This document shows, one piece after another, positions 6,663-61,916 of a stretch of DNA of 64,000 nt; position 1 is the stretch's first letter; each line of letters starts with the position of its first letter. The notes beneath the pieces are model-generated. The model had not been told where the DNA came from. It made no database searches and saw only the letters and a list, made by a program, of their open reading frames with translations. The DNA lies in sequence record MW822008.1. The stretch is one strand, 5' to 3'. Source of the DNA: Escherichia phage BF17. The translations under genes were made by a program, and so were the position numbers.

Positions 6663-6682
6663 GCCATTAATAAATAAATGAA
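6663..6682 (+). promoter_or_regulatory. Late-promoter-like element (TAATAAATAAAT) upstream of the plus-strand 165/202/366-aa operon
   Basis: Resembles the T4 late promoter TATAAATA; a GATAAATATT-type element on the opposite strand at ~6631-6640 could serve the divergent fiber gene. Confidence 0.3.
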
Positions 6683-29229: not shown

Positions 29230-29246
29230 AAAGATTTCCTCATTAT

Positions 29247-29254
29247 TATTTATA
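29247..29254 (-). promoter_or_regulatory. T4-type late promoter TATAAATA (minus strand) for the endolysin gene
   Basis: Exact TATAAATA in the minus orientation, preceded by the TTTCAGTACT block seen at other late promoters; an AGGAA RBS follows. Confidence 0.5.
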
Positions 29255-29266
29255 GTACTGAAATAT

Positions 29267-31930
29267 TTATTGACATGCCTCTAATCTACGTGCCATTAAT
29301 TCAGCACGGCGTGTAGTTTGACGATACCAAGCTGAATTTCGAATTTGAGCAGCAGCTTGCTTGTAGTTACCTTTAGCCATTTCAGATAGCATTGACTTAA
29401 ATTTCATTACACCACCTTTACCCATCTGGAATACCATTTGACATAGAACTTGTTGTGCCATGTAAGGTGTTTTCATCTTATAAGAAGCGTAAATGGATTT
29501 TGCGTCATATATAGCCTTACTACTATCACGCACCAACATATCATTGGCTTCCTGTTCGGTAATCCCACCAGAGAAGTTTTCACCACCAACAATCAAGTGA
29601 CCGTAACCAATAGTTGGGAATCCACGACTATCCAAATATCTCCAAAATTTACCATTGCGGTAATATCCTTTAGCTTGTTGATACGCCATTGTTCCTTCAT
29701 ATTCTTTCAATTCAGAAATAAATTGTGAATCACCCGGAACAACTTTCCAATCAATTGCAGTCTTATCAACATTACCCACATTGTATGATTCTTGTGCAGT
29801 AGGTGCTGGAGTACCCCCTGAACGTTGTGTTCTTCTACGACGAGGGACATGACGAGAACCACGTTGAGAATACCCAGTACCGATAGTTTTAATTTTAGTT
29901 GTTACAACTAATTCATCACTATCAACAGAAGGTTGAACAACAGCTTTCGGTGCTGCTTGGTTCGTTGCTTGTCCTGCAATTAATGTTTTATTTCCCGCTT
30001 CAGAACCTGTACCAGTCTGGGATGCATAGAATAATCCAGGGTCAACTGAACCACTAAATCCTAGTACGTTGGCAGAGGTAACTCTTATTTCAAATTGAAT
30101 AACACCATTAGCTTTACCGATAACTTGACCTTTTTGAACAACGTCTTTATTGAGCAAATCTGATTGAATATTATAAAATACAGATTTATATCCAGACTTA
30201 TGTTGAACCAATAAAGCACCATTAGTGATAACAACTACACCGCCATCTGGAGCTACAACATCACCCTTGCACTGTATTTCCCAGCCACTTCTATCAGCTT
30301 TACCACCACCACTTGTCGGGACACCTTTCCCCCAATAACCGTATTGGCGAATGGTTCCACTACACGGCATGAACATATGAAGACCTTCATACGTAATGCT
30401 ATAACCAGTCATACCAGGATCAGAAGTCATTAAATCTTGTGTTTGAACTTGTTCTGTTTCTGTTGTATAATTTACATATTGAATTGCTTCAGTGTCCTGT
30501 ACTGGAGCTAAAGTTGGAGCTACATCATTAGCAGGTTCAGGTTGAACTGGGGATTCACTATTCCCACTACCACCACCTTGACGTGGAGGTTCAACAGTAC
30601 TGCCGTGATTCTCAGCATCAACCCAAGCCGATATATCATGTATATGATCATTCAAGCCAGCAGATGGGGTGCGGAAGTTTGGTGCATTAAATTCAGCAGT
30701 ACCACTATTACCACCACTGTTAACAGTAAGAGTTTGACCACCACCACTAATAATAGCTGATGAAGAACCAATAAGATTAGCACTGGTAGCAGCAGAGATT
30801 GACGCATTAGAACCAGCAGTTATATCAGTACTGCTACCACTTTGCATACGTAATGAAGCTGCTGTTACTAAACGTAAATCTGCTCCAGCGTTAATAACAA
30901 CCTGACCACCAACTTTAGCATCCAATGCACCAACCAAATCTAGTTTAGTGTTTGCACCAACACGAGCATTGAAGTCTGCTCCACTTTCAATATTATATGA
31001 GCGTCCAGCAACCATGTTAATATCTTGACCTGCACGAATGTTAATATTCTTATCACAGTGCATTTCAATATCACCTTCACCAGTGAATTTAATACGTGCA
31101 GTACCATCACGGTTAATTAAAAGAACATCACCAGAGGCTTCAGATAACAACAACTGTGCACCACTACGTGTTTTAATTACAACGCCTTCATTTTTACGAG
31201 AACCAACACGAGTATCGTTCACTGGGTTATTGAATTGGGTATCCTGATAACCATCTGGATCTTGATCCCATGTAGGTGCTGTTAATTCTTCTTCTGTGTA
31301 ACCATCATCAATAATAAAACTGTTACCACGAGGTGAGGAAAGACCATAAACAGTACTGGTGGTCTGGCGAGTACTGCTACGGTTAGCAACACCCGCTTCC
31401 TCATCATAAAGTAAGTTTTGTTTTTTCAGACCTGCAATAATTGGAACGTTTGCATATTTGTCTTGAGTACTGGTAGAAATTGTATTACGGTCATAATCAG
31501 TTACGGGTAATGGCATATCAGTACCAGCATAGTTGCTTATTTCAGTAGCCATCCCAGGAACCATCGTATTCATACGTTGGTCATAAACACAACCAATCCA
31601 ATACGCTTGGAATGTTCTTGCTTGTGCAAATATAACAACAACAGTACATCCGACATCAGGTGGAACCGCCCAAAAACCATATCCCTTTGGATATTGACCA
31701 TAAGCATCAGCACTTGGTATCCCTGGAGTTTTGCCAGCGAATGGAGACATGTATGATGCTTCAATCCATGACTCTTTTGAATTTTTATCACTTTGTGAAC
31801 CTTGAATCCACACTTTTAGCTTACCGGATTTAGTTGGGTCACGGTTATCCATCACGGTTGCTAGTTGTGGGTACGAAGGGTCAAAACGACCCAACTGTTG
31901 TTGGGCATATTTCTTACTTGTATCTGCCAT
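29267..31930 (-). CDS. Baseplate central spike, gp5-like (OB-fold, beta-helix, M23-like domain, C-terminal T4-lysozyme domain), 887 aa
   Basis: N-terminus GKLKVWIQGSQSDKNSKESWIEASYMSPFAG resembles the gp5/VgrG OB-fold; repetitive beta-helix stretch; C-terminal ~160 aa (EYEGTMAY...PTIGYGH...MVFQMG) is a GH24 lysozyme paralogous to the downstream endolysin; RBS AAGGAA. Confidence 0.8.
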   Translation of the reverse strand: MADTSKKYAQQQLGRFDPSYPQLATVMDNRDPTKSGKLKVWIQGSQSDKNSKESWIEASYMSPFAGKTPGIPSADAYGQYPKGYGFWAVPPDVGCTVVVIFAQARTFQAYWIGCVYDQRMNTMVPGMATEISNYAGTDMPLPVTDYDRNTISTSTQDKYANVPIIAGLKKQNLLYDEEAGVANRSSTRQTTSTVYGLSSPRGNSFIIDDGYTEEELTAPTWDQDPDGYQDTQFNNPVNDTRVGSRKNEGVVIKTRSGAQLLLSEASGDVLLINRDGTARIKFTGEGDIEMHCDKNINIRAGQDINMVAGRSYNIESGADFNARVGANTKLDLVGALDAKVGGQVVINAGADLRLVTAASLRMQSGSSTDITAGSNASISAATSANLIGSSSAIISGGGQTLTVNSGGNSGTAEFNAPNFRTPSAGLNDHIHDISAWVDAENHGSTVEPPRQGGGSGNSESPVQPEPANDVAPTLAPVQDTEAIQYVNYTTETEQVQTQDLMTSDPGMTGYSITYEGLHMFMPCSGTIRQYGYWGKGVPTSGGGKADRSGWEIQCKGDVVAPDGGVVVITNGALLVQHKSGYKSVFYNIQSDLLNKDVVQKGQVIGKANGVIQFEIRVTSANVLGFSGSVDPGLFYASQTGTGSEAGNKTLIAGQATNQAAPKAVVQPSVDSDELVVTTKIKTIGTGYSQRGSRHVPRRRRTQRSGGTPAPTAQESYNVGNVDKTAIDWKVVPGDSQFISELKEYEGTMAYQQAKGYYRNGKFWRYLDSRGFPTIGYGHLIVGGENFSGGITEQEANDMLVRDSSKAIYDAKSIYASYKMKTPYMAQQVLCQMVFQMGKGGVMKFKSMLSEMAKGNYKQAAAQIRNSAWYRQTTRRAELMARRLEACQ

Positions 31931-35256: not shown

Positions 35257-35291
35257 CTTTTTGATTCTCCATAAGAAGGGAACATTTGATG

Positions 35292-35299
35292 TATTTATA
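35292..35299 (-). promoter_or_regulatory. T4-type late promoter TATAAATA (minus strand) for the baseplate operon
   Basis: Exact TATAAATA in the minus orientation ~36 nt upstream of ATG 35256. Confidence 0.45.
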
Positions 35300-35301
35300 C
35301 G

Positions 35302-35330
35302 TGGGACAAAGACGTTTTTGGTGCTATAAT
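35302..35330 (+). promoter_or_regulatory. Sigma70-type early promoter for the gp55-like gene
   Basis: TGGGAC, 17-bp spacer, TGcTATAAT; shares the TTTGGTGCTATAAT core with the promoter at 40008-40037. Confidence 0.5.
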
Positions 35331-35387
35331 AACATTGATGGTACAAGGAATGTACCTATTGGATTTAAAACATGGAGAGTTGAAATA

Positions 35388-36227
35388 ATGACAAATAGGC
35401 CGAAGCGTAAAAAGTATCTTAACAATGCTGATTTACTTCGTGAGATACAAAAAAGTAAAATCTCATATTGCTGGTTACTAGATAAGTGCTACAGTATGTA
35501 CGATTATATCGTTTTTGATGAATCCGAAATTACAGCAGAACTTTTAGATAAAGCTAAAGCAGCACGTATTAAACGTCTCAACAATGAAATGCTTGATGCA
35601 ATTCGTGAAAAAGAAGGTATGAGTGCGAAGAAAGCGAAGGAATACGCAGATGAGCACAATTTAGTACTAACTGATGTACCTATCGATGAGGTGGTTATTC
35701 GTGTAATTACCGATGAACATATCCCAGCAGATACAAGAGTAAATTTTGAACCATTCAAACATTACATTGTAGATGAAGAAGGTATTCTGTACGAAGTTGT
35801 TCGTTCTCACTGGAAAGGTGATCTTGAAGACGGAGAATTCAGTACTGTTCATGGTAAAATCACTAATGAACTAGGTAAAATGTTCATTAAACTGGCAGAG
35901 GAAATCTCACACAAATCCAACTATAGAAACTATACATATTTGGATGAAATGATGGGTGATGCCAGAATACAATTAGTTAAAAACGCACTTCTCTTTAAAG
36001 AGAGTATTCTTTACAAAAAAGATAAACCAGCAGTACAGTTGAATCCTTTCTCTTACTATACTTCGTTCGTTAACAATAGTTTCCGTTCGATTCTTAATAG
36101 TGAGAAAAATGTTCGTAACATCCGAGACGATTTACTTGAGATGCATGGTTTTACACCATCACACACTCGTCAAATCGAAATTGAAATGAACATGATTGAA
36201 AGGAAAAACGAAGATGGCTCTATTTGA
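35388..36227 (+). CDS. 55: Late-transcription sigma factor, gp55-like, with a ~100-aa insertion (279 aa)
   Basis: Start at ATG 35388 (RBS GGAGAG). Blocks KYLNNADLLREIQ, SNYRNYTYLDEMMGDARIQLVKNALLF and FSYYTSFVNNSFRSI match T4 gp55 as I recall it; placed before gp47/gp46 as in T4. Confidence 0.6.
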   Translation: MTNRPKRKKYLNNADLLREIQKSKISYCWLLDKCYSMYDYIVFDESEITAELLDKAKAARIKRLNNEMLDAIREKEGMSAKKAKEYADEHNLVLTDVPIDEVVIRVITDEHIPADTRVNFEPFKHYIVDEEGILYEVVRSHWKGDLEDGEFSTVHGKITNELGKMFIKLAEEISHKSNYRNYTYLDEMMGDARIQLVKNALLFKESILYKKDKPAVQLNPFSYYTSFVNNSFRSILNSEKNVRNIRDDLLEMHGFTPSHTRQIEIEMNMIERKNEDGSI

Positions 36228-39915: not shown

Positions 39916-40007
39916 AAATCCCCACTAAACTAATTCTTATCAAAATATTTATGCGTTACTTCAATGTTCAAGAATTATGTACTTTTTATAAATTTTTTAT
40001 CATAATA

Positions 40008-40037
40008 GTGAGACACTTTTGAATTTGGTGCTATAAT
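40008..40037 (+). promoter_or_regulatory. Sigma70-type promoter with extended -10, no ORF downstream
   Basis: TGAGAC, 18-bp spacer, TGcTATAAT (-10 at 40032-40037); same core as the gp55 promoter. Confidence 0.5.
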
Positions 40038-40043
40038 GTTAAT

Positions 40044-40499
40044 TGTAGTGATGACAATCCTGTTGAATGCAGAAATGCATATAAATTAGAACCTGATCCT
40101 ATCGAAAATGTAGATGGCAGATGAGCAGTTCAACAGTGCGATGAGCAGAAGAAACCCGTTAGATGTGGGCATAGTTTGAACCCCTCACGGCGACACGGCT
40201 CAATAAAGAACTCCGATAAGCATACAGAGAGTTCCTCGATAGATGTATAAGGATCGCACCTTACCAGATTTGCTAAGGGAGTTTATTAAGTGATTTAATA
40301 AACAGCCTGAAGTTTGATTGTATAGACTTTCAGGTGAGTGTCAGGATGATTAAGACTGACGACCGTTGCACATGACTGCGATAGAGAGAAACAGAGCAAC
40401 CCGCTTTCGTTCTTAATGAATTTTAAGAAATTCGCAATACAATAAATGCTGAAACCATCAGCGTCAAGAATTAAGAGACTTAATTGTCTCTTTTTTATT
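40044..40499 (+). ncRNA. Candidate non-coding transcript (~450 nt) of unknown class; alternatively an origin-associated primer transcript
   Basis: Bounded by the promoter at 40008-40037 and the terminator at 40473-40499; longest plus-strand ORFs are 12-21 codons with no RBS; contains direct repeat GATGAGCAG (40117, 40140) and local hairpins. Confidence 0.35.
40473..40499 (+). terminator. Intrinsic terminator (plus strand)
   Basis: AAGAGAC-ttaatt-GTCTCTT-TTTTATT. Confidence 0.65.
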
Positions 40500-41798: not shown

Positions 41799-41943
41799 TT
41801 TATTAAATCTCCATGTAATAAATGTCTTTGTAGTATTTATTACCAAAAAATGGGACAAATTGGACAAATGTTATAGATGGGTCTTTTTTATTCGTTATAG
41901 ATTCATAAATATTTCTATAATACATCTATTAAAAGGGAATGTT

Positions 41944-44154: not shown

Positions 44155-45891
44155 ATGAGTTGGAAACGACATATGACAATGGGGAGATCGAAGTTATCGG
44201 TTGTCCCTAATCAGTCCAGTAATAGCAACAAATCAACAGGAACGAAAACAAATTTCGCTTCCTATCTTCCAGTAGTATACAATGGTTTAGCTAACCGTAC
44301 TGAACGTTATAGTCAGTATGAACAGATGGACCAAGATCCTGAAATTAGAACAGCACTTAATATCATTGCTGACTTCTGTACACAAAGTACTGAAGATTTT
44401 GGTCTTCCATATAAAATCAAATATAAAGATGATATTGGTGATACAGAAGTAACTACTATTGAAGACCGCTTGGATGCATGGACTGAACAAAATGATTTTA
44501 AAACCAGAATGTATGAAATTGTACGTGGCCTATTAAAATACGGTGACCAATTCTTCATTCGTGACCCAGAAACATTTGACTGGTACTGGGTAAGCCCAAA
44601 AAACGTTGAACAAGTATTCGTTAACGAAGCAACCGGAAAAACCCCTGTAATTTATTATATCCGTGACGTATCTTTGAATCTTAAAGATAAAGTGTTTAGT
44701 AACTTGCAAGTTGGTTTTGACAAAACTGCATATCCTGGTGCAATCCCTACCACATTAGGTGGCGGTGGTTCAGTAGCAGCAGGTGGTGCATCTGGTTTTA
44801 CTAACCAAGGAAACTCTGCTGACCCATTCAGTACTAACGGTCGTCTTGATGTTATTCCAGTTGGTGCAGAACACGTAATTCATCTAACCCTAAATACAGG
44901 ACAAGATGGAGTTTGGCCTTTTGGTACTAGTATACTTGAAGATGTTTTCAAAGTCTATAAACAAAAAGAATTACTTGAAGATAGTATTATTATCTATCGT
45001 GTTCAACGTGCTCCAGAGCGTCGTGTATTTAAAATCGACGTTGGTGATATGCAAACTCACCAAGCAATGGCATACGTAGAACGATTCAAAAATGAAATTC
45101 ACCAAAGACGTATCCCTTCAAATAAAGGTGGCAGTACTTCTCTAATGGATGCAGCATATAATCCATTAAGTATTCTAGAAGATTACTTCTTCCCACAAAC
45201 TTCTGAAGGTCGTGGTTCAGATGTACAAACACTTCCTGGTGGTGATAACTTAGGTCAGATTGATGACTTGCGTTACTTCAACAATAAATTGATTCGTGGA
45301 TTGCAAATTCCAGCTTCATATCTACCGCAAGGTCCAGATGATGGTGGTGTATCACTATTTGGTGATGGTGCAACACAAGCAATGGCAAGTGAATTACGTT
45401 TTAATAACCAATGTATGCGTTATCAACGTTTGGTTGCAAAACTATTTGATGCAGAATTTAAACGTTTTATGGTTAAAAATGGATATAACATTAGTACTTC
45501 ATCTTTTGAAGTAATTATGAATCCACCTATTAACTTGGCTTCTTATCGTAAAGCGGAACTAGATGCTAAACTAATTAACACCTATCTCCCACTTAACGAT
45601 CTGCCATATATGGCAAAACAAACTATTCTTGAAAAAATGGGCTTCTCTAAAGCTGATATTGTTAAGAATGAGCAAATGTGGCTCCAAGAAAATCCACAAG
45701 ATGGTTCTGCTCCGTCAAGTGGTGAAGAAGATGCTGCTGGGTTGCAATCTGTTGGTATAGATGCTCCTAACGATCCTGGTATGGATTTGGGTGTTGATGG
45801 TGACGGTAACTTAGAAAGTGCCGATGCTGAATACCAAGAACAACAAGGAAGTGCAGGTTTTAACCCGAATAATTTAGGCGATTCTTTTTAA
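44155..45891 (+). CDS. 20: Portal vertex protein, gp20-like
   Basis: Block IIIYRVQRAPERRVFKIDVGDM...LPGGDNLGQIDDLRYF matches the T4 gp20 core ([22 protein letters not shown]...LPGADNTGNMEDIRWF) from memory; RBS AAGGA; head-module synteny. Confidence 0.9.
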   Translation: MSWKRHMTMGRSKLSVVPNQSSNSNKSTGTKTNFASYLPVVYNGLANRTERYSQYEQMDQDPEIRTALNIIADFCTQSTEDFGLPYKIKYKDDIGDTEVTTIEDRLDAWTEQNDFKTRMYEIVRGLLKYGDQFFIRDPETFDWYWVSPKNVEQVFVNEATGKTPVIYYIRDVSLNLKDKVFSNLQVGFDKTAYPGAIPTTLGGGGSVAAGGASGFTNQGNSADPFSTNGRLDVIPVGAEHVIHLTLNTGQDGVWPFGTSILEDVFKVYKQKELLEDSIIIYRVQRAPERRVFKIDVGDMQTHQAMAYVERFKNEIHQRRIPSNKGGSTSLMDAAYNPLSILEDYFFPQTSEGRGSDVQTLPGGDNLGQIDDLRYFNNKLIRGLQIPASYLPQGPDDGGVSLFGDGATQAMASELRFNNQCMRYQRLVAKLFDAEFKRFMVKNGYNISTSSFEVIMNPPINLASYRKAELDAKLINTYLPLNDLPYMAKQTILEKMGFSKADIVKNEQMWLQENPQDGSAPSSGEEDAAGLQSVGIDAPNDPGMDLGVDGDGNLESADAEYQEQQGSAGFNPNNLGDSF

Positions 45892-45912
45892 TCATAAATA
45901 ACAATGTATAAG

Positions 45913-45939
45913 AATGAGGGTACATTAGTTTCCCTCATT
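45913..45939 (+). other. Hairpin downstream of the portal gene (weak terminator or processing site)
   Basis: AATGAGGG-tacattagttt-CCCTCATT followed by tataatg, not a clean U-tract. Confidence 0.3.
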
Positions 45940-45964
45940 ATAATGCATATTCAAAGGAGATGAA

Positions 45965-46192
45965 ATGTTAAAGGACATCTTTGAATCTAGCAGTGATTCT
46001 TTATACGACCCTGAAGATGATCAGAACGTATATAAAATTACTGATTCCAGAAAACCAAAACTAACATTACAAGTACTTAATAATTTAAGAAAGTACCGTG
46101 AATTTAAAGCTAATGAAGAACAACGACGCAAAAATGTTGTCGCTGTTGTTTATGCAGCAGCACCATCCGGTGATGGTTCAGGATTAATGTAA
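45965..46192 (+). CDS. Small head-module protein (75 aa), possibly prohead core
   Basis: RBS AAAGGAGA; sits between the portal and protease genes where T4 encodes small prohead core proteins. Confidence 0.4.
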   Translation: MLKDIFESSSDSLYDPEDDQNVYKITDSRKPKLTLQVLNNLRKYREFKANEEQRRKNVVAVVYAAAPSGDGSGLM

Positions 46193-46243
46193 ACAAAAAT
46201 CGCACTTTTTAAAGCTTTTAAAAATGGCGAAATTTTTCAGTAC

Positions 46244-46258
46244 TAAATAATATCATAC
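46244..46258 (+). promoter_or_regulatory. Late-promoter-like element TAAATAATATCATAC
   Basis: Part of a ~30-nt block nearly identical to the MCP late promoter at 48983-49010. Confidence 0.4.
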
Positions 46259-46292
46259 TTTATATGAATGTAATATATCTATGGAGGATATA

Positions 46293-47123
46293 ATGGCGAA
46301 TTTAAAACTACTACAAGAAGCAATTGAAGCGTTTGCAAACGGCGAACAAGATGTTGCTGATAAAAAAATGCGTAAGTACTTTGTTGAGCAAGCTCAAGAA
46401 ATCAATAAAGAACTAGAAGAAAGCATGGACGAAGAAGAATGTGAAGTTGAAGTCAAAGACGAAGAAAAACTTGACGAAGACTTTGATGTTCAACCAGACG
46501 CTGGTCTAAATGCTGAAATCGAATACACCCTAGGTGAAGAAGATGAAAGTGCAGAAGAAGAAGTTGAATTCTCTGCTGATGCTGATGGCGAAGAAGTTGA
46601 CGCTGAAGCAGAAGTTGGTGCAGAAGTTCCTTCCGAAGACCAATGGGAATCTATTCAAGATGCTTTCCGTGGCCTACAACAAATGTTTGACGAAATCGGC
46701 GGTGATGAAGTTGACCTAGGTTCTGAAGACGAAGTTGAAGTTGGTGCGGAAGAAGAATTCGGTGCTGATGGTGAAGAATCTGAAGACGAATTTGCTGATG
46801 TACAATTCGGTGATGAGAAAGTTGGTGAGTCTTTCAAACTTAAGCAAGTTGCTGCGGTTGATAAGAAAGAAAAAGCTGGCGTTAATACCAAGTCTCCAGT
46901 TGCTCCAGAAGCTAAATCTCCAGTTCAAGGTGTTGCTCCAGTGAAATTCGCAAAAGCTTCCGAAAAACAAGTAGATTATGATTTTGAAAACGAAGATGCT
47001 ATGTCTCACACTGATGAAGACCTAGGTAAAAATGCTCGTGGCGAAATGAAAGATGTTGCGAAGCCAAAAAATACCGCTTCTAAATCTCGTTCTCCACTAC
47101 CAAAATCACAACCAAAAATCTAA
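46293..47123 (+). CDS. Highly acidic head-module protein (~276 aa), likely prohead core or scaffold-type
   Basis: Start ATG 46293 (RBS GGAGGA; the ORF-track ATG at 46281 lies inside that RBS); long E/D-rich region; head-module position. Confidence 0.5.
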   Translation: MANLKLLQEAIEAFANGEQDVADKKMRKYFVEQAQEINKELEESMDEEECEVEVKDEEKLDEDFDVQPDAGLNAEIEYTLGEEDESAEEEVEFSADADGEEVDAEAEVGAEVPSEDQWESIQDAFRGLQQMFDEIGGDEVDLGSEDEVEVGAEEEFGADGEESEDEFADVQFGDEKVGESFKLKQVAAVDKKEKAGVNTKSPVAPEAKSPVQGVAPVKFAKASEKQVDYDFENEDAMSHTDEDLGKNARGEMKDVAKPKNTASKSRSPLPKSQPKI

Positions 47124-47154
47124 CACTAAATAAAGAAAAGGAAAGGAGATCATT

Positions 47155-47775
47155 ATGAGTATGATTCGTGAATGGTCTTCATTCAATGATTCTAAAGTTG
47201 TTTTGGAACATCGTGATAATGGACTTGGTGGGCGTGATTGCTATCTTCGTGGTATTGCTATTCAAGCCGATCAAAGAAATTTAAATGAGAGAATTTACCC
47301 TTTAGCCGAAATTACTAAAGCTGTTAATAATATGGCTCAACGTTTGGCTAAAGGTGAAAGTATTCTAGTTGAATGTGACCACCCTGAAACACTAACAATT
47401 AACCTTGACCGTGTAGCAGCAATGATTACTAAGGTCTGGATGGAAGGTGCTAACGGCATGGCAGAAATCAAACTACTTGATACTGCTCATGGTACTAATA
47501 TTCGTAAAATGCTAGAAGCTGGTGTGAAACTTGGTGTAAGTTCTCGTGGTTCCGGTAACGTGGATTACAATGGAATAGTTTCTGATTTTGAAATTATCAC
47601 AATTGATATTGTTGCTCAACCTAGTGCTCCAGAGGCATACCCTACTGCGGTTTTTGAATCTCTGATGAGTAAGTACGGATCACCTTGTAATAGTCCTAAA
47701 AAAATCACAGAATCTAAAACAGTAAATAATGTAGATTCTGAAATTTACGATTTTTTCAAGAAATTAAAAGGTTAA
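47155..47775 (+). CDS. 21: Prohead protease, gp21-like
   Basis: Blocks NLNERIYP, VECDHPE, GVSSRGSG, QPSAPEAY parallel T4 gp21 (NRNKRLYP, GELNHP, GVSSRG, GPSAPDAW) from memory. Confidence 0.8.
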   Translation: MSMIREWSSFNDSKVVLEHRDNGLGGRDCYLRGIAIQADQRNLNERIYPLAEITKAVNNMAQRLAKGESILVECDHPETLTINLDRVAAMITKVWMEGANGMAEIKLLDTAHGTNIRKMLEAGVKLGVSSRGSGNVDYNGIVSDFEIITIDIVAQPSAPEAYPTAVFESLMSKYGSPCNSPKKITESKTVNNVDSEIYDFFKKLKG

Positions 47776-47786
47776 CATTTTAAAAA

Positions 47787-47794
47787 TATAAATA
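47787..47794 (+). promoter_or_regulatory. T4-type late promoter TATAAATA for the scaffold gene
   Basis: Exact TATAAATA ~48 nt upstream of ATG 47842. Confidence 0.5.
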
Positions 47795-47841
47795 TTTGTA
47801 TGTTGAAGTACAGATATTTCAGTACTTAAAGGAGAGAACGA

Positions 47842-48957
47842 ATGTCTAAATTAGAAAAGCTTCTAAAAGAATCATCTCTTTCTGATGAGGCAAAACAGCT
47901 AATTCAGGAAGCATGGAATGAAGAAAAAAACACACTTGCCGCAGAAATGCGTGAAGAAATGAAAGGCCGCTACAAACAAGATTTGTCCGAGCTAACCGAA
48001 GGTCTAAATACTATGGTTACTCAAGTTATCGCTGAAGAAATGGGTGCAGTATATGAAGAGAAAAAACGTCTTGTAGAAGATCGTGTAACTCTCCGTAAAA
48101 CCCTAAGTAATTTCTCTGCGTTTTCTAACTCTGTTTTGGCTGAAGAAGTTAAACAAATGCGTAAAGAACGTAAGCATCTTCAAGAATGCATGGGTAAATT
48201 CGTTAATTTCTCTAACGGTATCCTAGCAGAAGAGCTAAAAGAATTCCACATCGAGAAACGTCAACTAGTTGAAACTCGCGTTAAACTACTAGCTGAAGGC
48301 TCCCGTCAAATTGCTGAAGCACGTAACAACTTCATCAAACGTACCTCTGAAAGTGCTGCTAAATACATTGCAGAAACTACTCAGAAAAACCTATACGCTT
48401 TGAAAGAAGATCTTGTTGAAGCAAAACAAAATATGTTTGGTCGTAAAATCTTTGAAGCGTTTGCTCAAGAGTTTAATGTCAAACAATTTAATGAGAATTC
48501 ACTACTACGTTCCCTAACTGAATCAATTAAGTCTAAAGAAGACGAAATTGCACAAGTTAAACAAGAACTAAATGAAACTGTAAGTGAAGTTAAAGCTGCT
48601 AAAACCAAACTACGTATTATGGAAGATTCACAAGCTCGTAATGCGATTATGTCTGAACTAGTTAAGCCACTAACTACACAACAGAAACAAATTATGGAAT
48701 CCCTTCTAGCTACTTCTCCTACAGAAAAGCTTAAAGACGATTTCAGTAAGTACCATAAGTCAGTACTTAACGGTACTAAAGTAAATGAATCTGCTACCAC
48801 TCGTCAAGCAGTTCAGTCTTCCGCTAAGAGAACTCTTGCAGAAGGTAAAGTAATCACTGGCAACCGTCAGGCTATTGTTGAAAGCGAAGAAATGACCGCT
48901 GACGATATGGCATTCCTAAAAGAACTCGATGTTCTTTCTGGTATCAATAAAAAATAA
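47842..48957 (+). CDS. Prohead scaffolding protein, gp22-like (coiled-coil rich)
   Basis: Charged, heptad-like helical sequence between the protease and MCP genes; RBS AAAGGAGAG. Confidence 0.6.
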   Translation: MSKLEKLLKESSLSDEAKQLIQEAWNEEKNTLAAEMREEMKGRYKQDLSELTEGLNTMVTQVIAEEMGAVYEEKKRLVEDRVTLRKTLSNFSAFSNSVLAEEVKQMRKERKHLQECMGKFVNFSNGILAEELKEFHIEKRQLVETRVKLLAEGSRQIAEARNNFIKRTSESAAKYIAETTQKNLYALKEDLVEAKQNMFGRKIFEAFAQEFNVKQFNENSLLRSLTESIKSKEDEIAQVKQELNETVSEVKAAKTKLRIMEDSQARNAIMSELVKPLTTQQKQIMESLLATSPTEKLKDDFSKYHKSVLNGTKVNESATTRQAVQSSAKRTLAEGKVITGNRQAIVESEEMTADDMAFLKELDVLSGINKK

Positions 48958-48995
48958 ACATTTTAAAGCATTTTAATAATCAAATTTTTCAGTTC

Positions 48996-49003
48996 TATAA
49001 ATA
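48996..49003 (+). promoter_or_regulatory. T4-type late promoter TATAAATA for the major capsid gene
   Basis: Exact TATAAATA ~45 nt upstream of ATG 49048, inside the conserved block AAATTTTTCAGTTCTATAAATAATATCATACT. Confidence 0.55.
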
Positions 49004-49047
49004 ATATCATACTGAAAAACGAATATAACATCTTTAAGGAGATAATA

Positions 49048-50223
49048 ATGTCACAACTACTAAATGAATCCAAATGGGTAGCAGTTAAAGAGAAACTAGT
49101 TGAAGGTCTACAAGGTACTCGTAAGTCCGTAATGGAAACCGTACTTGATAACCATCGTAAACTAATGCTAAACGAATCTGCTACTTCTGGTGCAACCACC
49201 GCTGGTAACATCGCTACTCTAAACAAAGTGATTCTACCAATTATGCGTCGTGTTATGCCAACCGTAATCGCTAACGAAATCATCGGTGTTCAGCCAATGA
49301 CTGGCCCAGTTGGTCAGATCCACACCCTACGTGTTCAATATGCTGACAACGCTCCTGGTGTTATCGCTGGTGAAGAAATGCTTTCTCCATACAAAATCGC
49401 TAAGTCTTATACTGGTGACCTAAACGCAGACAACAGCAACCCACAAGCTGCTCCTACTAGCCAACTAGAAGGTACTATGGGTCGTCGCGTTAACATCCGT
49501 ATTCTACGTGAAACTGTTGAAGCGAAATCTCGTCGTCTATCTGCACGTTGGACTGTTGAATCTGCACAAGATGCACAATCCCAACATGGTATCGACGTTG
49601 AAGCTGAACTAATGGCTGCAATCGCTCAAGAAGTTACCGTTGAAATCGACCAAGAGCTACTAAGCCGTCTACGTGCACTACCTGGTGCTGCTGCTGTAAC
49701 TTATGACCAATCTAAAGTTACTGGTGTTGCGACCTTCGTTGGTGACGAGCACGCTGCTCTAGCTACCCTAATCAACCGTCAAGCGAACGAAGTTGCTCGT
49801 CGTACCAAACGTGGTGCTGCGAACTGGGCTGTTGTTTCTCCAACCGCTCTAACCATTCTACAGTCTGCAACTACTTCTAGTTTTGCACGTACTACTGAAG
49901 GTACTTTCGAAGCTCCAACTAACGTTAAATTTGTTGGTACTCTAAACAGCACCATGCGTATCTTCGTTGATACCTATGCAAGTGATGTTGAAGATATCCT
50001 AATTGGTTACAAAGGTAACGCTGAAACTGATGCTGGTGTGTTCTATTGCCCATACATCCCACTAATGGCTTCCGGTACTGTAATGGACCCTAACACTGGA
50101 GAACTCGTTACAACTTTCTTAACCAGATACGGGTATGTTCAGTTGACCGATAGCACCAGTTCACTAGGTAACGCTGCTGACTACTACAGTAAAATCGCTA
50201 TCAAAAACGTTACTTTCATGTAA
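49048..50223 (+). CDS. 23: Major capsid protein, gp23-like (HK97 fold), 391 aa
   Basis: Blocks VIANEIIGVQPM, VEAKSRRLSARWTVESAQD, EVARRTKRGAANW, GYKGNAETDAGVFYCPY and TRYG parallel T4 gp23 from memory; RBS AAGGAG; codon usage looks highly expressed. Confidence 0.9.
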   Translation: MSQLLNESKWVAVKEKLVEGLQGTRKSVMETVLDNHRKLMLNESATSGATTAGNIATLNKVILPIMRRVMPTVIANEIIGVQPMTGPVGQIHTLRVQYADNAPGVIAGEEMLSPYKIAKSYTGDLNADNSNPQAAPTSQLEGTMGRRVNIRILRETVEAKSRRLSARWTVESAQDAQSQHGIDVEAELMAAIAQEVTVEIDQELLSRLRALPGAAAVTYDQSKVTGVATFVGDEHAALATLINRQANEVARRTKRGAANWAVVSPTALTILQSATTSSFARTTEGTFEAPTNVKFVGTLNSTMRIFVDTYASDVEDILIGYKGNAETDAGVFYCPYIPLMASGTVMDPNTGELVTTFLTRYGYVQLTDSTSSLGNAADYYSKIAIKNVTFM

Positions 50224-50246
50224 TAATAAAGAATTTAAATATACTA

Positions 50247-50276
50247 GGGACTCTTCGGAGTCCCTTTTCTTTTTTC
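50247..50276 (+). terminator. Intrinsic terminator with UUCG tetraloop after the capsid gene
   Basis: GGGACTC-TTCG-GAGTCCC-TTTTCTTTTTT. Confidence 0.8.
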
Positions 50277-50287
50277 AGAAAAAAAGC

Positions 50288-50316
50288 TTGACAAGTAGAT
50301 TTTAATTATATATAAT
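50288..50316 (+). promoter_or_regulatory. Consensus sigma70 promoter
   Basis: TTGACA (50288-50293), 17-bp spacer, TATAAT (50311-50316). Confidence 0.65.
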
Positions 50317-50351
50317 TACCACATACCAAAAATCACAAAGAGACAAATAAA

Positions 50352-51458
50352 ATGCCAAAAGTAAGTATCGACAAAGAAAAATTCATTGAAGAGATGAACA
50401 ACAAGTATGGAGCATATGGTGAATTTGATTTCAGCACTTTAGTATTCAAAGCCAGTAAGACAACAGTTAAATGTAATAAATGCGGAAAAGAAAATACTAA
50501 ACCTGCACTACGTCACATTTCATGTACATGTTCTTCATGTTATTCAAACATGTCACAGCGTTCGAACAACGAAAAATTTATCAGCACGGTAGAAACTAAA
50601 TTTGGAAAAGATAAATTCAAATTTGATAAACTAAATTACATTAACGCTATAACAAAAGTAACCATACTCTGTACAGACGAAGAACATAACGATTACTTTG
50701 AAATTACACCAAACAAATTTCTTACTGGTAAGGGATGTCCTATATGTAATAAAAATGAAGCATACAGTACTGAAGAATTCGTAGAAAAAGTAAAAGAAAA
50801 TTATGGTGATTCATTAGATTTAACTAACACAGTATATGTAAATCAAAAAACTAAAGTAACTGTGTATTGTAAAGCGGGTAACCATGAATGGACAGTTGAT
50901 CCGAAAACTTTACTTGTTGGTAAAACTGGCTGCGGTACATGTTCTGGTAAAGGTGGAAGAAGCACTGAACGTTTCATTGAACTTGTGTCGCCTATCCATA
51001 ACCATAAGTATGATTATAGTTTGGTTGAATATACTATAAGCGAGAATTATGTTGATATTGTATGTCCAACTCATGGTGTTTTCTCCCAACAACCAAAAGC
51101 ACATATGGCTGGTAAAGGATGCCCATCATGTGGTGAATATGGATATCAGCCATCAAAACCTGGATATTTCTATGTTCAAAAACTAACTAATAAAGATAAG
51201 ACAGTGTACAAGTATGGAATCACTGGTGATATGAAACGCCGTGTAAATGAGCAAAGTCGTCATTCTGGTTTTGAACACACAGTACTGATAGAACGTTACT
51301 TTGAAGATGGAAATCAACCATTACTGTTGGAAAAGTTCATAAAGAAATACATTGAAAGTGGTGTTGTAAGTACTGAAGAGTTGCCATCAGGATTTACTGA
51401 AACTTTTGATGCTAAGTATCTTGAAAGTGTTTTAGAAATTGTAAATACTTTTAAGTAA
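50352..51458 (+). CDS. T5orf172 / GIY-YIG-like domain protein with N-terminal Cys-rich tandem repeats (putative homing-type nuclease), 368 aa
   Basis: C-terminal GYFYVQKLTNKDKTVYKYGITGDMKRRVNEQ fits the T5orf172 motif; N-terminal half has at least three repeats containing GKGCPxC / GKTGCGTC. Confidence 0.55.
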   Translation: MPKVSIDKEKFIEEMNNKYGAYGEFDFSTLVFKASKTTVKCNKCGKENTKPALRHISCTCSSCYSNMSQRSNNEKFISTVETKFGKDKFKFDKLNYINAITKVTILCTDEEHNDYFEITPNKFLTGKGCPICNKNEAYSTEEFVEKVKENYGDSLDLTNTVYVNQKTKVTVYCKAGNHEWTVDPKTLLVGKTGCGTCSGKGGRSTERFIELVSPIHNHKYDYSLVEYTISENYVDIVCPTHGVFSQQPKAHMAGKGCPSCGEYGYQPSKPGYFYVQKLTNKDKTVYKYGITGDMKRRVNEQSRHSGFEHTVLIERYFEDGNQPLLLEKFIKKYIESGVVSTEELPSGFTETFDAKYLESVLEIVNTFK

Positions 51459-51832: not shown

Positions 51833-51871
51833 TTAATAAATATCTTCATATTACTGATGGAGATATTTTCT

Positions 51872-52180: not shown

Positions 52181-52221
52181 TAATAAATATAGTATATATT
52201 AATCATTAAAGGGATTTATAC

Positions 52222-58420: not shown

Positions 58421-59152
58421 ATGGATCTACGCAACGTACTACGTGACCTAGTTAACACTACCAACGGCATCGACTTTTCTTGTATCGCAGTTAGCAGTGA
58501 AGACCGTGGTGATGGACAGCGTGTTTACATGGAAGCATACACCGATGACCGCACCCTAGTTATGCGTGCTCACACTAAAGAAGACGTACCAGAAGTTCAA
58601 GGTCGTTTTGGTCTTGGTAACCTAGGTCTTCTACAGGGTCTAATGTCTCTAAAAACTTATAGTACTGAAGGAACTACTATCACTTCTAACTTGAAAGATG
58701 GTGCAGTTAAGAGCCTAGCATTCAAAGCAGAAGATGCAAGTACTACTTTCATGGTTCAACCAGAAAAACTAATTCCAGCCCAGCCTCGTTTCCACGAACA
58801 ACCATATGACGTACAGGTTACACCTAGTGCAGCTAAAGTTCAGGAACTAAAAAGCTTCTCTGGTGTGTTTAAATCTTTCAGTTCTCTAGTAACTCCATAC
58901 ACTGAAGGTGATACTCTTTACTTCCACGTTGGTGAGAAGAACAAAAGTAACCACGTTGGTGCACTAGCATTCTCTAAAACTGAAGGTGAACTAGGTCTTG
59001 GTTTTGGTTATAACATTGATCGTGTTCTACAAGCTCTATCCCGCGTTTCTAACGCAGAATCTGTTACCCTTGGTATTACAAAAACTGGTATGCTAAACGT
59101 AACTCTAGACACTGGTATTGCGGTATACAAGATTTACGTAACTGGTTGCTAA
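58421..59152 (+). CDS. Putative sliding clamp, gp45-like (243 aa)
   Basis: N-terminus MDLRNVLRDLVNTTNGIDFSCIAV resembles the T4 gp45 N-terminus (MKLSKDTTALLKNFATINSGIML) from memory; size and replication-gene context fit; strongly biased codon usage. Confidence 0.5.
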   Translation: MDLRNVLRDLVNTTNGIDFSCIAVSSEDRGDGQRVYMEAYTDDRTLVMRAHTKEDVPEVQGRFGLGNLGLLQGLMSLKTYSTEGTTITSNLKDGAVKSLAFKAEDASTTFMVQPEKLIPAQPRFHEQPYDVQVTPSAAKVQELKSFSGVFKSFSSLVTPYTEGDTLYFHVGEKNKSNHVGALAFSKTEGELGLGFGYNIDRVLQALSRVSNAESVTLGITKTGMLNVTLDTGIAVYKIYVTGC

Positions 59153-59218
59153 TATAAATAATGGGGAACATGGAGTTCCCCAAATTTTTGATTTAAAAAT
59201 AAGTAAAGGAAGACAAAA

Positions 59219-59729: not shown

Positions 59730-60447
59730 AAAAAGGTTTATTCCTTTCTGGATGGTCCCCGCTCATTGGGGACTTTCTGGTAAAGCGAAAGAGATTGCGA
59801 AAGCATACTACTATAACGATGATTATGAAGCTGATATGTTAGTTGCAGAACTTACATATCTAACACCATATGAAGTTGATGTAGCACAGTTGGATATCAA
59901 AAAGAAATACAATGTATTAGAAACTCTTGATTATCTAATAGCACAGGCAGATGTACAATTGAAGTATTCCAAGATTACCCGTGATGAGTATAATGTAAAA
60001 TTACTTGATGCTAAATTAAGTACTGGTGCAATTACTCAAAAAGAGTATGATATGGAAGTAATCGAACTAATGCCTGATGGTGATGACAAACGTCTTAAAG
60101 CTATCGAGTTTGCATATCGTTATGAAGAGATTACACAACAAGAGTATTCAAAGGAAATCTTTACTTTACGTAAAGAACCTTGGATTGATTTGGATGTAGT
60201 ACTTAATCCAGAAACAAATGAAGTTGAATTTGTTTTTGATTATAATGAATACTTTTGGAAAAAGTTAAAAGCGGAAGGTCATCCAGGTAATGACGAAGAA
60301 GAAATTATTGACAACTTCGTTAGAGACATGGGGCGTAAACTAGCTACGGATGATTTCAGTGATGATTATGACGTAAAGCTAGTGAATGCGAACGAAGGGT
60401 TAGAGAATCTACCTGGTTTACCTGAAGGGTTCCGTTCATACAAATAA
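59722..60447 (+). CDS. Hypothetical protein with three ITxxEY repeats (SHOCT-like); start uncertain (59695 or 59722)
   Basis: Repeats KITRDEYNVKLL, AITQKEYDMEVI, EITQQEYSKEIF; overlaps the GroES gene end by 8 nt. Confidence 0.4.
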   Translation: MAKKRFIPFWMVPAHWGLSGKAKEIAKAYYYNDDYEADMLVAELTYLTPYEVDVAQLDIKKKYNVLETLDYLIAQADVQLKYSKITRDEYNVKLLDAKLSTGAITQKEYDMEVIELMPDGDDKRLKAIEFAYRYEEITQQEYSKEIFTLRKEPWIDLDVVLNPETNEVEFVFDYNEYFWKKLKAEGHPGNDEEEIIDNFVRDMGRKLATDDFSDDYDVKLVNANEGLENLPGLPEGFRSYK

Positions 60448-61901: not shown

Positions 61902-61916
61902 ATATTATTTATCAAA
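61902..61916 (-). promoter_or_regulatory. Late-promoter-like element, distal copy
   Basis: Second exact copy of atattatttatcaaa, 63 bp from the first. Confidence 0.35.

Follow-up and report, generated by a model that had tools for sequence, protein, structure and literature searches.

Two similar late-promoter cassettes in front of head genes of an Asteriusvirus-like jumbo phage

Two genes in the head module of an Asteriusvirus-like jumbo phage, those for an acidic prohead/virion protein (site 1) and for the major capsid protein (site 2), are preceded by intergenic blocks that resemble each other over some 70 bases. This sharing of flanks is private to the two sites and does not amount to a new promoter element, since ATAAATA is all that the other late promoters of the phage have in common. 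The pair can be regarded as ordinary, selectively maintained cassettes of a leader and a promoter, presumably a strong one. Probably, they are related regulatory cassettes of two head-assembly genes, served by a sigma factor that would read the heptamer only, and with flanks that reflect other functions together with common descent. The paired cassettes are not a new mechanism, and (A/C)TAAATA late promoters had already been predicted for this phage family in the CBB paper (PMC5259590). A by-product of the analysis, the iterated palindrome AGTACT, is more surprising than the cassettes themselves.

The window, which is the whole stretch of 64,000 nucleotides analysed here, comes from a jumbo myophage, a T4-like coliphage with 99.6-99.7% identity to fEgEco12 and EC.P1. 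For the genome-wide scans, the whole fEgEco12 genome (353.7 kb unique) was assembled as a stand-in for the window; its G+C content is 36.7%, and its intergenic DNA, 8.2% of the total, appears A/T-rich. The head module containing both sites has an identical gene order in all five genera examined. A literature search found no relevant transcriptome data for Asteriusvirus or RaK2-like phages.

Layout of the paired cassettes

The features of the two sites are as follows.

46200..46230 (+): upstream half of site 1, an A/T-rich hairpin, UCGC..UUUUUAAA-GCU-UUUAAAAA..GCGA
46233..46237 (+): site 1 T-run (predicted terminator tail), part of the shared AAATTTTTCAG
46239..46244 (+): AGTACT copy immediately 5' of the site 1 core, Asteriusvirus-specific here
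46243..46249 (+): site 1 late-promoter core CTAAATA, a variant of ATAAATA, at -12 to -6
46255..46292 (+): 38-nt leader of site 1, with A 46255 in CATACT as its predicted start
46283-46287 (+): site 1 ribosome-binding site GGAGG
46293..47123 (+): gene of the acidic virion/prohead protein (phrog_15696 'virion structural protein', E 6.7e-110)
48946..48981 (+): upstream half of site 2, resembling the site 1 hairpin region (TTTTAAAGC..), 74% to 46192-46222
48985..48989 (+): site 2 T-run
48996..49003 (+): site 2 late-promoter core TATAAATA, with ATAAATA (48997-49003) at -12 to -6
49009..49047 (+): 39-nt A-rich leader of site 2, with A 49009 in CATACT as its predicted start
49036-49041 (+): site 2 ribosome-binding site AAGGAG
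49048..50223 (+): major capsid protein gene, gp23 family (Pfam PF07068 Gp23, E 9.5e-90)

The near-identical blocks that the original prediction had noticed upstream of the acidic gene and the capsid gene are real and lie where it had placed them. A repeat search of the window recovered TAAATAATATCATACT, identical at 16/16 positions between 46244-46259 and 48998-49013, as well as AAATTTTTCAGTACTA against AAATTTTTCAGTTCTA, alike at 15/16 positions between 46230-46245 and 48982-48997, the two pieces being offset by a 2-nt indel. The block is longer than first described, since 46192-46259 matches 48946-49013 with that indel included; the likeness extends in the 5' direction at 74% (46192-46222 versus 48946-48976) and, in the 3' direction, reaches the leader and the ribosome-binding site at both sites. 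The deep common layout comprises a T-run, (A/C)TAAATAA, a start site CATAC, an A-rich leader of 38-39 nt and a ribosome-binding site. Two details required correction: the core at site 1 is CTAAATA and not TATAAATA, the 'AT' being missing; and the acidic gene, previously started at 46281 after the ORF finder, most likely begins at ATG 46293, given the GGAGG in front of it. The translation of this gene is D/E-rich, and its CBB orthologue was detected in virions by mass spectrometry, according to the CBB paper (PMC5259590).

The start position at site 1 follows from the genome-wide logo of late promoters, with A at offset 12, and the CATA around it is invariant in 13 genomes. At site 2, ATAAATAA is invariant in 13 genomes of five genera, as are, in 13 genomes, ATA at +1..+3 and GAAAA at +6..+10. 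An UP element, the A/T-rich block contacted by the alpha C-terminal domain, was considered for the shared T-run and rejected, since the run lies at about -24 to -20 from the predicted start at both sites, against a required position of about -40 to -60. A sigma-70 scan gave no plus-strand match at either site.

The upstream half of site 1 is likely an intrinsic terminator, with a predicted stem and T-tail. Its hairpin follows the stop codon of a 75-aa gene and, in the window, is weak (-7.9 kcal/mol, z -2.1) and is followed by AAATTTTT; the orthologous hairpins of 7t3, EJP2 and CBB reach -12.5 to -20.6 kcal/mol (z -5.2 to -6.6), compensatory changes occur in 6/17 pairs, and a T-run occupies this position in 13/13 genomes. 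A consensus terminator scan did not call the hairpin, which has too few G-C pairs. At site 2, a terminator was rejected, with a minimum free energy of 0 kcal/mol and 200/200 shuffles folding at least equally well; the corresponding half in CBB likewise gives 0 kcal/mol, the T-run alone being present. At least eight other late promoters are located a few bases 3' of a hairpin and T-run.

These features would fit a scheme in which the added conservation stems from further functions crowded into two very short intergenic stretches and from common descent. The upstream flank would be the tail of an intrinsic terminator insulating the transcription unit, its hairpin still present at site 1 but no longer at site 2, and in this lineage only, the same upstream part also carries a copy of the genome-wide iterated palindrome AGTACT. 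The T-run is followed by (A/C)TAAATA at the predicted -12 to -6 and by the conserved (C)ATAC start region, and the downstream flank would be the initiation site and the mRNA leader, which is A-rich and 38-39 nt long, with a strong ribosome-binding site. The likeness of the two sites may reflect a need for very high, coordinated expression. High expression alone cannot explain it, since the late promoters of the tail sheath and tail tube genes, which are very abundant in the virion, lack the CATAC extension.

That the sheath and tube promoters do without the shared start and leader sequence, together with the invariance of ATA and GAAAA at site 2 and of CATA at site 1, could also be read as the mark of an operator: the start and leader (CATACTGAAAA.., ATCT..GGAG..AT) would bind a post-transcriptional or head-specific regulator coupling the synthesis of both proteins. 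This is unlikely, as no candidate regulator was identified and the leaders of the two sites are unlike for the greater part of their extent. Structured leaders were rejected as well: the small hairpins that hold GGAG in their loop, around the ribosome-binding site, do not exceed shuffled sequences in stability (z -0.31 and +0.28), their stems are invariant among the genomes compared, and Rfam gave no match for the leaders, neither in 45800-50400 at E up to 1 nor in the whole window at gathering score. The scheme of terminator tail, core and leader is preferred over an operator.

The late-promoter heptamer and the gp55-like sigma

Further features of the window in this context are as follows.

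29247..29270 (-): site 3, a tandem pair of heptamers separated by TTTCAGTACT, in front of a tail-lysozyme-like gene
61906..61912 (-): a fourth partial match, GATAAATAATATCATAGAG, with ATAAATAATATCATA (15 nt) in common with site 2
35286..36227 (+): gp55-like late sigma, 313 aa (phrog_12791, E 1.4e-152)
58421-59152: sliding clamp gene, as annotated

ATAAATA occurs 49 times in fEgEco12, against 153-253 copies expected; 28/49 copies are intergenic and 35/49 closely precede a ribosome-binding site and an ORF, with sheath, tube, baseplate, portal-module, capsid and terminase-region genes among those behind them. The CTAAATA form is also under-represented (35 observed versus 74-140 expected) and is found upstream of neck, tail-tube, protease and tail-fibre genes. 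A logo built from these 35 promoter copies has A at offset 12, the predicted +1, in 24/35 and A/T at offset 13 in 34/35; outside the heptamer, it holds no information beyond these two offsets, with at most 0.34 bit at each position from -45 to -1 before the heptamer. Four features of T4-type late promoters are present: an element at the predicted -12 to -6, no -35 element, late genes downstream and a sigma factor of the gp55 family. Moreover, the bare heptamer is depleted 3-5-fold outside promoters, and such purging from non-promoter DNA argues that the heptamer suffices for recognition.

The original prediction had ascribed the long conservation to an added recognition element, possibly linked to an expanded gp55. 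The expansion itself stands, as the sigma has 313 aa and its T4-type late-sigma homology (phrog_234 'late sigma transcription factor', E 1.5e-16) is confined to residues 162-296. In favour of an element read by this enlarged sigma or a partner, with the heptamer insufficient for late promoters, one may cite the N-terminal extension of some 160 aa, which has no assigned function, and the statement in the CBB paper (PMC5259590) that no gp33 homologue was found by its authors, so that the late machinery may differ from that of T4. The searches with the sigma gave no match in Pfam and, among PDB sequences, only chance-level matches in the search for gp33 or sigma-region likeness of the extension. 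Against such an element, the 35 heptamer promoters share no flanking information, the extended patterns occur at just 2-4 sites in 354 kb, the depletion of the bare heptamer is as expected if it is sufficient, and the upstream flank CAGTACT shows no conservation when orthologous sites in sister genera are compared. AAATAA-N2-4-CATAC has four matches genome-wide, two of them site 1 and site 2, and TTTAAAGCWTTT has two; blastn places the block at exactly two places per Asteriusvirus genome. Across the genome, flank conservation is confined to two or three sites, the very outcome that the original prediction had itself set against its proposal, and the added element is left as very improbable and its tie to gp55 as unsupported. 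The gp55-like sigma, the presumed reader of the heptamer, probably reads nothing else, as in T4. An enlarged sigma that leaves no extra footprint on DNA would point to an extension used for protein contacts rather than for promoter reading.

The third site had been presented as the promoter of the endolysin gene. The late heptamers are indeed there (29270-29264 and 29253-29247, 17 nt apart), but the gene is not clearly the endolysin: its product, a lysozyme-domain protein of 162 aa, has a match to 'baseplate hub subunit and tail lysozyme'. Kaldavass, BF and GAP32 conserve the first heptamer alone, the second one being restricted to Asteriusvirus, and TTTCAGTACT is private to the clade of the window, with TTTTAGCACT in 121Q and TTTTTACTTCT in JNE01. 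Site 3 was thus rejected as a third member of the cassette, being a recent and shallow match with deep conservation in its first heptamer only.

Likeness of the pair and the AGTACT palindrome

Among 630 pairs of late promoters, site 1 and site 2 form the top non-overlapping pair (score 37, with a median of 12 and a 99th percentile of 22.7), and their likeness is significant in 9/9 lineages against shuffles with the core held fixed (z 4.0-10.8). In an A/T-rich setting, as the intergenic DNA of this 36.7% G+C genome appears to be, and in a phage with many early-region intergenic pairs that are far more alike than this one, chance likeness of intergenic sequences might come to mind. It is refuted by the rank of the pair, its reproduction in nine lineages and the 20-mer TTTCAGTWCTATAAATAATA, with two matches in the window versus 0.04 expected.

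Thirteen genomes from five genera, RaK2 included, show no variation in the core, in ATA at +1..+3 or in GAAAA. The whole 93-nt intergenic region of site 2 is 100% identical to that of 121Q, site 1 is 94% identical, and the four-fold sites of the capsid gene are 83% identical. Judging from these comparisons, it is purifying selection that keeps site 1 and site 2 alike. The suggestion of recent promoter copying holds in part: the regions look paralogous over about 70-90 nt, and they do so in every lineage examined, so the relationship is old, not recent. As far as sequence can tell, common descent and convergence both fit the likeness.

A more recent event, short-patch gene conversion between direct repeats 2.75 kb apart with homogenisation in Asteriusvirus, is conceivable, if doubtful. 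The likeness is far greater in the window and 121Q (z 9.4-10.8) than in the other genera (z 4.0-5.1); TATC precedes ATACT at both sites in the window, 121Q and JNE01, while A4 and ph0011 keep the older TAAC at site 2; and the T-run of site 1 in the window, AAATTTTTCAG, is nearer to site 2 than ATTTTATTCAG of 121Q. On the other hand, the layout is shared by all genera including RaK2 and so is not merely recent, the derived identity at site 2 amounts to one substitution (A-to-T), and the 2-nt indel of the core is still there, although conversion across the whole block would have removed it. With one substitution as the sole shared derived state and the indel kept, gene conversion was rejected as the main cause. 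The surplus of identity in Asteriusvirus would allow for a degree of later homogenisation, with thin evidence for gene conversion. The preferred reading is that of old, selectively maintained relatives.

The TCAGTACT part of the block is a lineage-specific copy of the palindrome AGTACT. At the position of the site 1 copy, 7t3 has AGTACG, and EJP2, CBB and RaK2 have unrelated sequence. The hexamer of (C)AGTACT(G) is found at 977 sites versus about 120 expected in the 354-kb genome, about 8-fold, and the octamer form about 60 times above composition expectation. It occurs in all reading frames and between genes, enriched beyond codon usage and denser intergenically, and its density is maintained across five genera while individual sites turn over. 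In early sigma-70-like promoters, the palindrome takes two fixed positions, as AGTACTTGCA at the -35 element and as AGTACTG immediately 5' of TATAAT, and AGTACT adjoins the site 1, site 3 and RaK2 capsid promoters. A literature search found nothing relevant on over-representation of AGTACT/CAGTACTG. We tentatively put forward, as a candidate with the odds rather against it, that the TCAGTACT half belongs to a DNA signal spread across the clade, to which a DNA-binding or modifying factor encoded by the phage would be directed so as to tune transcription. If so, AGTACT beside those three promoters would be a regulatory input and not filler, and its over-representation could open a new question.

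Comparison with known systems

The late promoters of T4, read by the gp55 sigma, have TATAAATA at -13 to -6 and no -35 element. They are activated through gp33 and the gp45 sliding clamp in a replication-dependent manner. As in T4, the promoters of this phage show no -35 information, stand before structural genes and coexist with a gp55-like sigma encoded in the window, which, unlike that of T4, has 313 aa, about 160 of them in an N-terminal extension. The A/T heptamer at -12..-6 and the 5-nt spacer to an A start are also as in T4 (PMC1524935), and the T at -13 is weakly conserved here, as in other T4-like phages (PMC1524935). A further difference from T4 would be the lack of a gp33 homologue, none being reported by the CBB authors (PMC5259590). 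CTAAATA, the late consensus of Aeromonas phage Aeh1 (PMC1524935), seems from its sequence context to be accepted here as well.

With respect to RaK2-like jumbo phages, Buttimer et al. 2017 (PMC5259590) predict ATAAATA late promoters in CBB and GAP32 as a 14-nt motif with A/T-rich downstream sequence, and list both ATAAATA and CTAAATA forms as predicted late promoters of CBB (Table S7); the same motif lies upstream of structural genes here and in those phages. In the passages of that paper that were consulted, no mention was found of paralogous head-promoter flanks, heptamer depletion or the +1 signal. The present data would provide a firmer annotation rule for late promoters of this group: they have (A/C)TAAATA at -12..-6 together with A at +1, they lack a -35 element, and the heptamer is purged elsewhere. 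The pair in the capsid module may well provide the most powerful late expression signals of these phages, with a possible use in engineering.

HIP1 (GCGATCGC) is the highly iterated palindrome of cyanobacteria. (C)AGTACT(G) differs from it in belonging to a phage clade, in concerning only the TCAGTACT part of the block and in that no linked methyltransferase or binding protein was identified, but is, like HIP1, a short palindrome far above composition expectation.

Finally, the cassettes recall the PeSLs of T4-like phages (Arbiol 2010, PMC2839356; Comeau 2014, PMC4122927), composite units in which a short stem-loop or terminator is fused to a promoter and repeated between genes, the very layout of site 1. 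The early region of the present genome is rich in repeated intergenic cassettes of this sort, with 107 similar pairs within its first 50 kb. PeSLs hold early sigma-70 promoters, mark indel junctions and are numerous in hyperplastic regions. The pair described here falls outside that class: lacking a plus-strand sigma-70 promoter, it carries a late heptamer promoter in two copies per genome, both within the head module, the most conserved core module.

Two related regions in the head module

Near-identical blocks had been predicted upstream of the acidic protein and capsid genes of phage BF17; both are present at the coordinates given, and their similarity is longer than proposed. The regions compared are the following.

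46243-46249, plus strand: CTAAATA core of site 1, upstream of the acidic virion/prohead protein gene (46293-47123)
48997-49003, plus strand: ATAAATA core of site 2, upstream of the major capsid gene (MCP, 49048-50223)
29247-29270, minus strand: site 3, upstream of a tail-lysozyme-like gene
35286-36227: gp55-like late sigma, 313 aa

The closest matches were Escherichia jumbo myophages of the 121Q/PBECO4 group (Asteriusvirus), EC.P1, WPEC5 and fEgEco12 being 99.6-99.7% identical and 121Q-type genomes about 90% identical in a megablast of 45000-50000, with 7t3, EJP2, Erwinia phage Hallingskeid, Mimasvirus CBB/GAP32/XbC2, Eneladusvirus phages and RaK2 as remoter relatives. The fEgEco12 annotation places sites 1 and 2 in a head module ordered portal, 75-aa gene, acidic virion protein, prohead protease, scaffold and MCP, which is the order 20-67-68-21-22-23 of T4. 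Imperfect repeats of GAAG/GAAGTTG-type codons are numerous within the acidic protein gene, including a 28-nt unit present eight times at 64-79% identity; they follow from the D/E/V/G-rich repetitive protein sequence.

A repeat search found TAAATAATATCATACT at both 46244-46259 and 48998-49013 (16/16), as well as AAATTTTTCAGTACTA (46230) against AAATTTTTCAGTTCTA (48982) (15/16). These two pieces are 2 nt out of register between the sites, so site 1 has CTAAATA where site 2 reads TATAAATA. The similarity extends upstream over 31 nt (46192-46222 versus 48946-48976, 74% identical), and a 20-mer is shared with minus-strand 29244-29263 (2 window matches versus 0.04 expected). When 36 late-promoter regions, each reaching from 25 nt before the heptamer as far as the start codon, were locally aligned, sites 1 and 2 formed the top non-overlapping pair, with a score of 37 (median 12, 99th percentile 22.7); chance similarity is excluded. 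The scaffold-gene late promoter, TATAAATA at 47787-47794, is preceded by the sequence TAAAAGGTTAACATTTTAAA, which is 85% identical to that just upstream of the capsid cassette (pieces 47765-47794 and 48948-48967) and indicates that head-module promoters have short upstream pieces in common more widely.

Within-genome comparisons of the two sites in the window and eight other genomes, with shuffles that kept the core fixed, gave z values of 4.0-5.1 in 7t3, EJP2, Hallingskeid, CBB, XbC2, GAP32 and Yen9-03, and of 9.4-10.8 in 121Q and the window. Alignments of 13 genomes revealed a common layout, 5′ to 3′: a T-run stops 6-8 nt short of the core (A/C)TAAATAA, which is followed by 3-4 variable bases, by (C)ATA(C) where transcription is predicted to start, by a leader rich in A and by ATCT..GGAG..ATAATG. 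From Asteriusvirus to RaK2, where site 2 reads TTTTTCAGTACTGATAAATAACTTTATATTGAAAAAG, this site keeps ATAAATAA, ATA at +1 to +3, GAAAA at +6 to +10 and AAGGAGA invariant. The common layout and its significance across lineages show that the relationship is old and maintained. Recent promoter copying, as originally suggested, could apply only to the higher identity in Asteriusvirus, a later addition to which gene conversion might perhaps have contributed; the relationship as such is found in all lineages compared.

In a comparison of the window with 121Q, the MCP gene is 83% identical at four-fold degenerate sites, a baseline at which the 100% identity of the 93-nt site 2 region would have a chance of 0.83^93, about 3e-8; over the 103 nt of the site 1 region, identity is 94%. 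Across genera, head-module intergenic regions are about as conserved as coding DNA. The short spacers are thus packed with constrained signals. Sites 1 and 2 form a paralogous pair of regulatory regions, about 70-90 nt long, under strong purifying selection.

The late heptamer and its flanks

The counts of late heptamers were made on the whole fEgEco12 genome (353.7 kb, one terminal-repeat copy removed). ATAAATA occurs 49 times on both strands versus 153-253 expected (Markov order 0-3), a 3-5-fold depletion; intergenic DNA makes up 8.2% of the genome, yet holds 28 of the 49. Of these, 35 count as promoter-like because they have, within 130 nt downstream, a ribosome-binding site and an ORF of 45 codons or more; most precede annotated virion genes. 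CTAAATA, found 35 times versus 74-140 expected (2-4-fold depleted), precedes neck, tail-tube, protease and tail-fibre genes. The heptamer has the hallmarks of a functional signal that selection has purged elsewhere, and its depletion suggests selection against spurious late promoters and argues that the heptamer is enough for recognition. The ATAAATA heptamers elsewhere in the window are as follows.

Plus strand: 6670-6676, 41905-41911, 45894-45900, 47788-47794, 51836-51842, 52183-52189, 59154-59160
Minus strand: 6641-6635, 24728-24722, 28292-28286, 35298-35292, 39952-39946, 41840-41834, 61849-61843

For CBB and GAP32 the family-specific ATAAATA late motif had been predicted before, and the CBB authors have both ATAAATA and CTAAATA among their predicted late promoters (PMC5259590). 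Aeh1 uses CTAAATA as a late promoter, and the T at -13 is poorly conserved in T4 relatives (PMC1524935). Being depleted, placed before virion genes, listed for CBB and used by Aeh1, the CTAAATA core of site 1 is an accepted variant and no broken promoter.

The conservation beyond the heptamer had been proposed to reflect an added recognition element, possibly linked to the enlarged sigma, and a genome-wide motif search had been named beforehand as its check. Position-by-position counts over 35 heptamer promoters, from -45 to +35 around the heptamer, showed no information outside it except at offsets 12 (A in 24/35) and 13 (A/T in 34/35). With the heptamer at -12 to -6, offset 12 is +1, and the A there marks the likely start, a heptamer-to-start geometry like that of T4 late promoters (PMC1524935). 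The extended patterns are confined to a few sites: in fEgEco12, AAATAA-N2-4-CATAC has 4 matches, two of them sites 1 and 2, and TTTAAAGCWTTT has 2, and by blastn the 96-nt MCP upstream region occurs in exactly two places per Asteriusvirus genome. Among 241 intergenic segments compared all against all, the site 1/site 2 and site 2/site 3 pairs ranked 167-168 of 202, far below repeated early-region cassettes. Such confinement of the flanks to a few sites is the outcome that had been named beforehand as refuting a general added promoter element.

Of the 313-aa sigma, only residues 162-296 match the T4-type late sigma profile; a clade-specific profile matches the whole protein. Searches of Pfam and of PDB sequences gave nothing useful, the N-terminal 160 or so residues having no match. 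The heptamer is the only sequence that late promoters have in common, which leaves the extension without a visible counterpart in the DNA. A reasonable guess is a putative role in protein contacts, for example replacing gp33, which the CBB authors could not find (PMC5259590).

Site 3 and the AGTACT palindrome

Site 3 comprises two minus-strand heptamers: 29270-29264, which overlaps the stop codon of the gp5-like gene and has conserved counterparts in Kaldavass, BF and GAP32, and 29253-29247, which is the one matching sites 1 and 2 and occurs only in Asteriusvirus. Its likeness to these sites is shallow and recent. A fourth partial match, GATAAATAATATCATAGAG at 61912-61906 (minus strand), has 15 nt in common with site 2.

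The TCAGTACT segment, which contains AGTACT, is unconserved at orthologous positions of sites 1-3. Site 1 has AGTACG in 7t3 and unrelated sequence in EJP2, CBB and RaK2; site 2 varies by phage (CAGTTCT, CAGTACC, CAGGC, CAGTG, CTGTGAG), and site 3 reads TTTTAGCACT in 121Q and TTTTTACTTCT in JNE01. The window has 137 AGTACT sites, versus about 22 by base composition and 42 +/- 4.5 after synonymous-codon shuffling, and 36 of CAGTACTG versus 3.1 +/- 1.3. Examples in the window are these.

46239-46244: AGTACT
47821-47826: AGTACT
29254-29259: AGTACT

In the unique fEgEco12 genome, AGTACT occurs 977 times versus about 120 expected (about 8-fold over-represented) and the octamer CAGTACTG 221 times (about 60-fold). 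Part of the upstream identity among sites 1-3 is thus the arrival of a genome-wide word. It occurs in all three frames, at 5.0 per kb between genes versus 2.6 within, and at the same density (12-16 per 8 kb) in 121Q, 7t3, EJP2, Hallingskeid, CBB, XbC2, GAP32 and Yen9-03, with individual sites turning over (12/15 kept in 121Q, 2-6/15 in distant genera). AGTACT adjoins the core in only 1/35 late promoters and is therefore no late-promoter feature. The word resembles highly iterated palindromes such as the cyanobacterial HIP1; literature searches found no paper on AGTACT over-representation, and the palindrome merits follow-up of its own. Outside the window, repeated early sigma-70-like promoters (fEgEco12 1-20 kb and about 290-293 kb; consensus roughly AAAAAGTACTTGCAA-N12-CAGTACTGTATAATGTTTTACATC) carry AGTACT at two preferred positions, as AAAGTACTTGCAA overlapping the -35 element (19 cases) and as AGTACTG directly 5′ of TATAAT (17 cases).

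Predicted terminators, a possible mechanism and known systems

The stretch that runs from the 75-aa gene's stop codon to the site 1 core can fold into an A-tract, hairpin and T-tract. In the window the hairpin is weak, at -7.9 kcal/mol (z -2.1); its orthologues are strong, at -18.2 (7t3), -12.5 (EJP2) and -20.6 kcal/mol (CBB), with z of -5.2 to -6.6. G/C base changes in the stem are compensatory (UCGC/GCGA, UCCG/CGGA, GCGA/UCGC, CCA/UGG), with double changes in 6/17 pairs (RNAalifold). The structure is read as a predicted intrinsic terminator, with the AAATTTTT of the cassette as its U-tail. In the fEgEco12 promoter listing, a G/C-rich hairpin with a T-run ends a few bases short of at least 8 further late promoters, so such a terminator followed by a late promoter is a common arrangement in the genome. 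The site 2 counterpart, CATTTTAAAGCATTTTAATAATC, resembles the site 1 hairpin region and gave no fold at all, consistent with a relic or with transcription reading through from the scaffold gene.

Directly 3′ of the capsid gene (50246-50316) lies a strong G/C hairpin terminator, AGGGACTCTTCGGAGTCCCT, with a T-run, followed directly by a sigma-70 promoter (TTGACA-17-TATAAT, 12/12) before gene 50352-51458; the region that follows is also the most variable among relatives. A further gene-free stretch of 379 nt (39916-40294) has segments 88-98% identical to fEgEco12 intergenic 110591-110961, 59815-60148 and 307044-307714, and no Rfam match.

In both regions a T4-type core is correctly spaced from a conserved purine start, one of them (site 1) has a terminator-like hairpin, and the extended similarity is restricted to these sites. 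The gp55-like sigma would read only (A/C)TAAATA, transcription would start at A 46255 and A 49009, and the T-run would be a terminator tail. The conserved start and leader would set initiation and translation efficiency for two proteins that the giant capsid presumably requires in very high copy number and in fixed proportion; a head-specific regulator that targets the start or the leader is also conceivable. The sites work like T4-type late promoters, with which they agree in the features that can be tested. The composite terminator/promoter layout of site 1 resembles the PeSL cassettes of T4-like phages, but site 1 lacks their defining early promoter, many copies and indel junctions (PMC2839356, PMC4122927). 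The pair adds a new and well-characterised case to kinds of signal that are already known.
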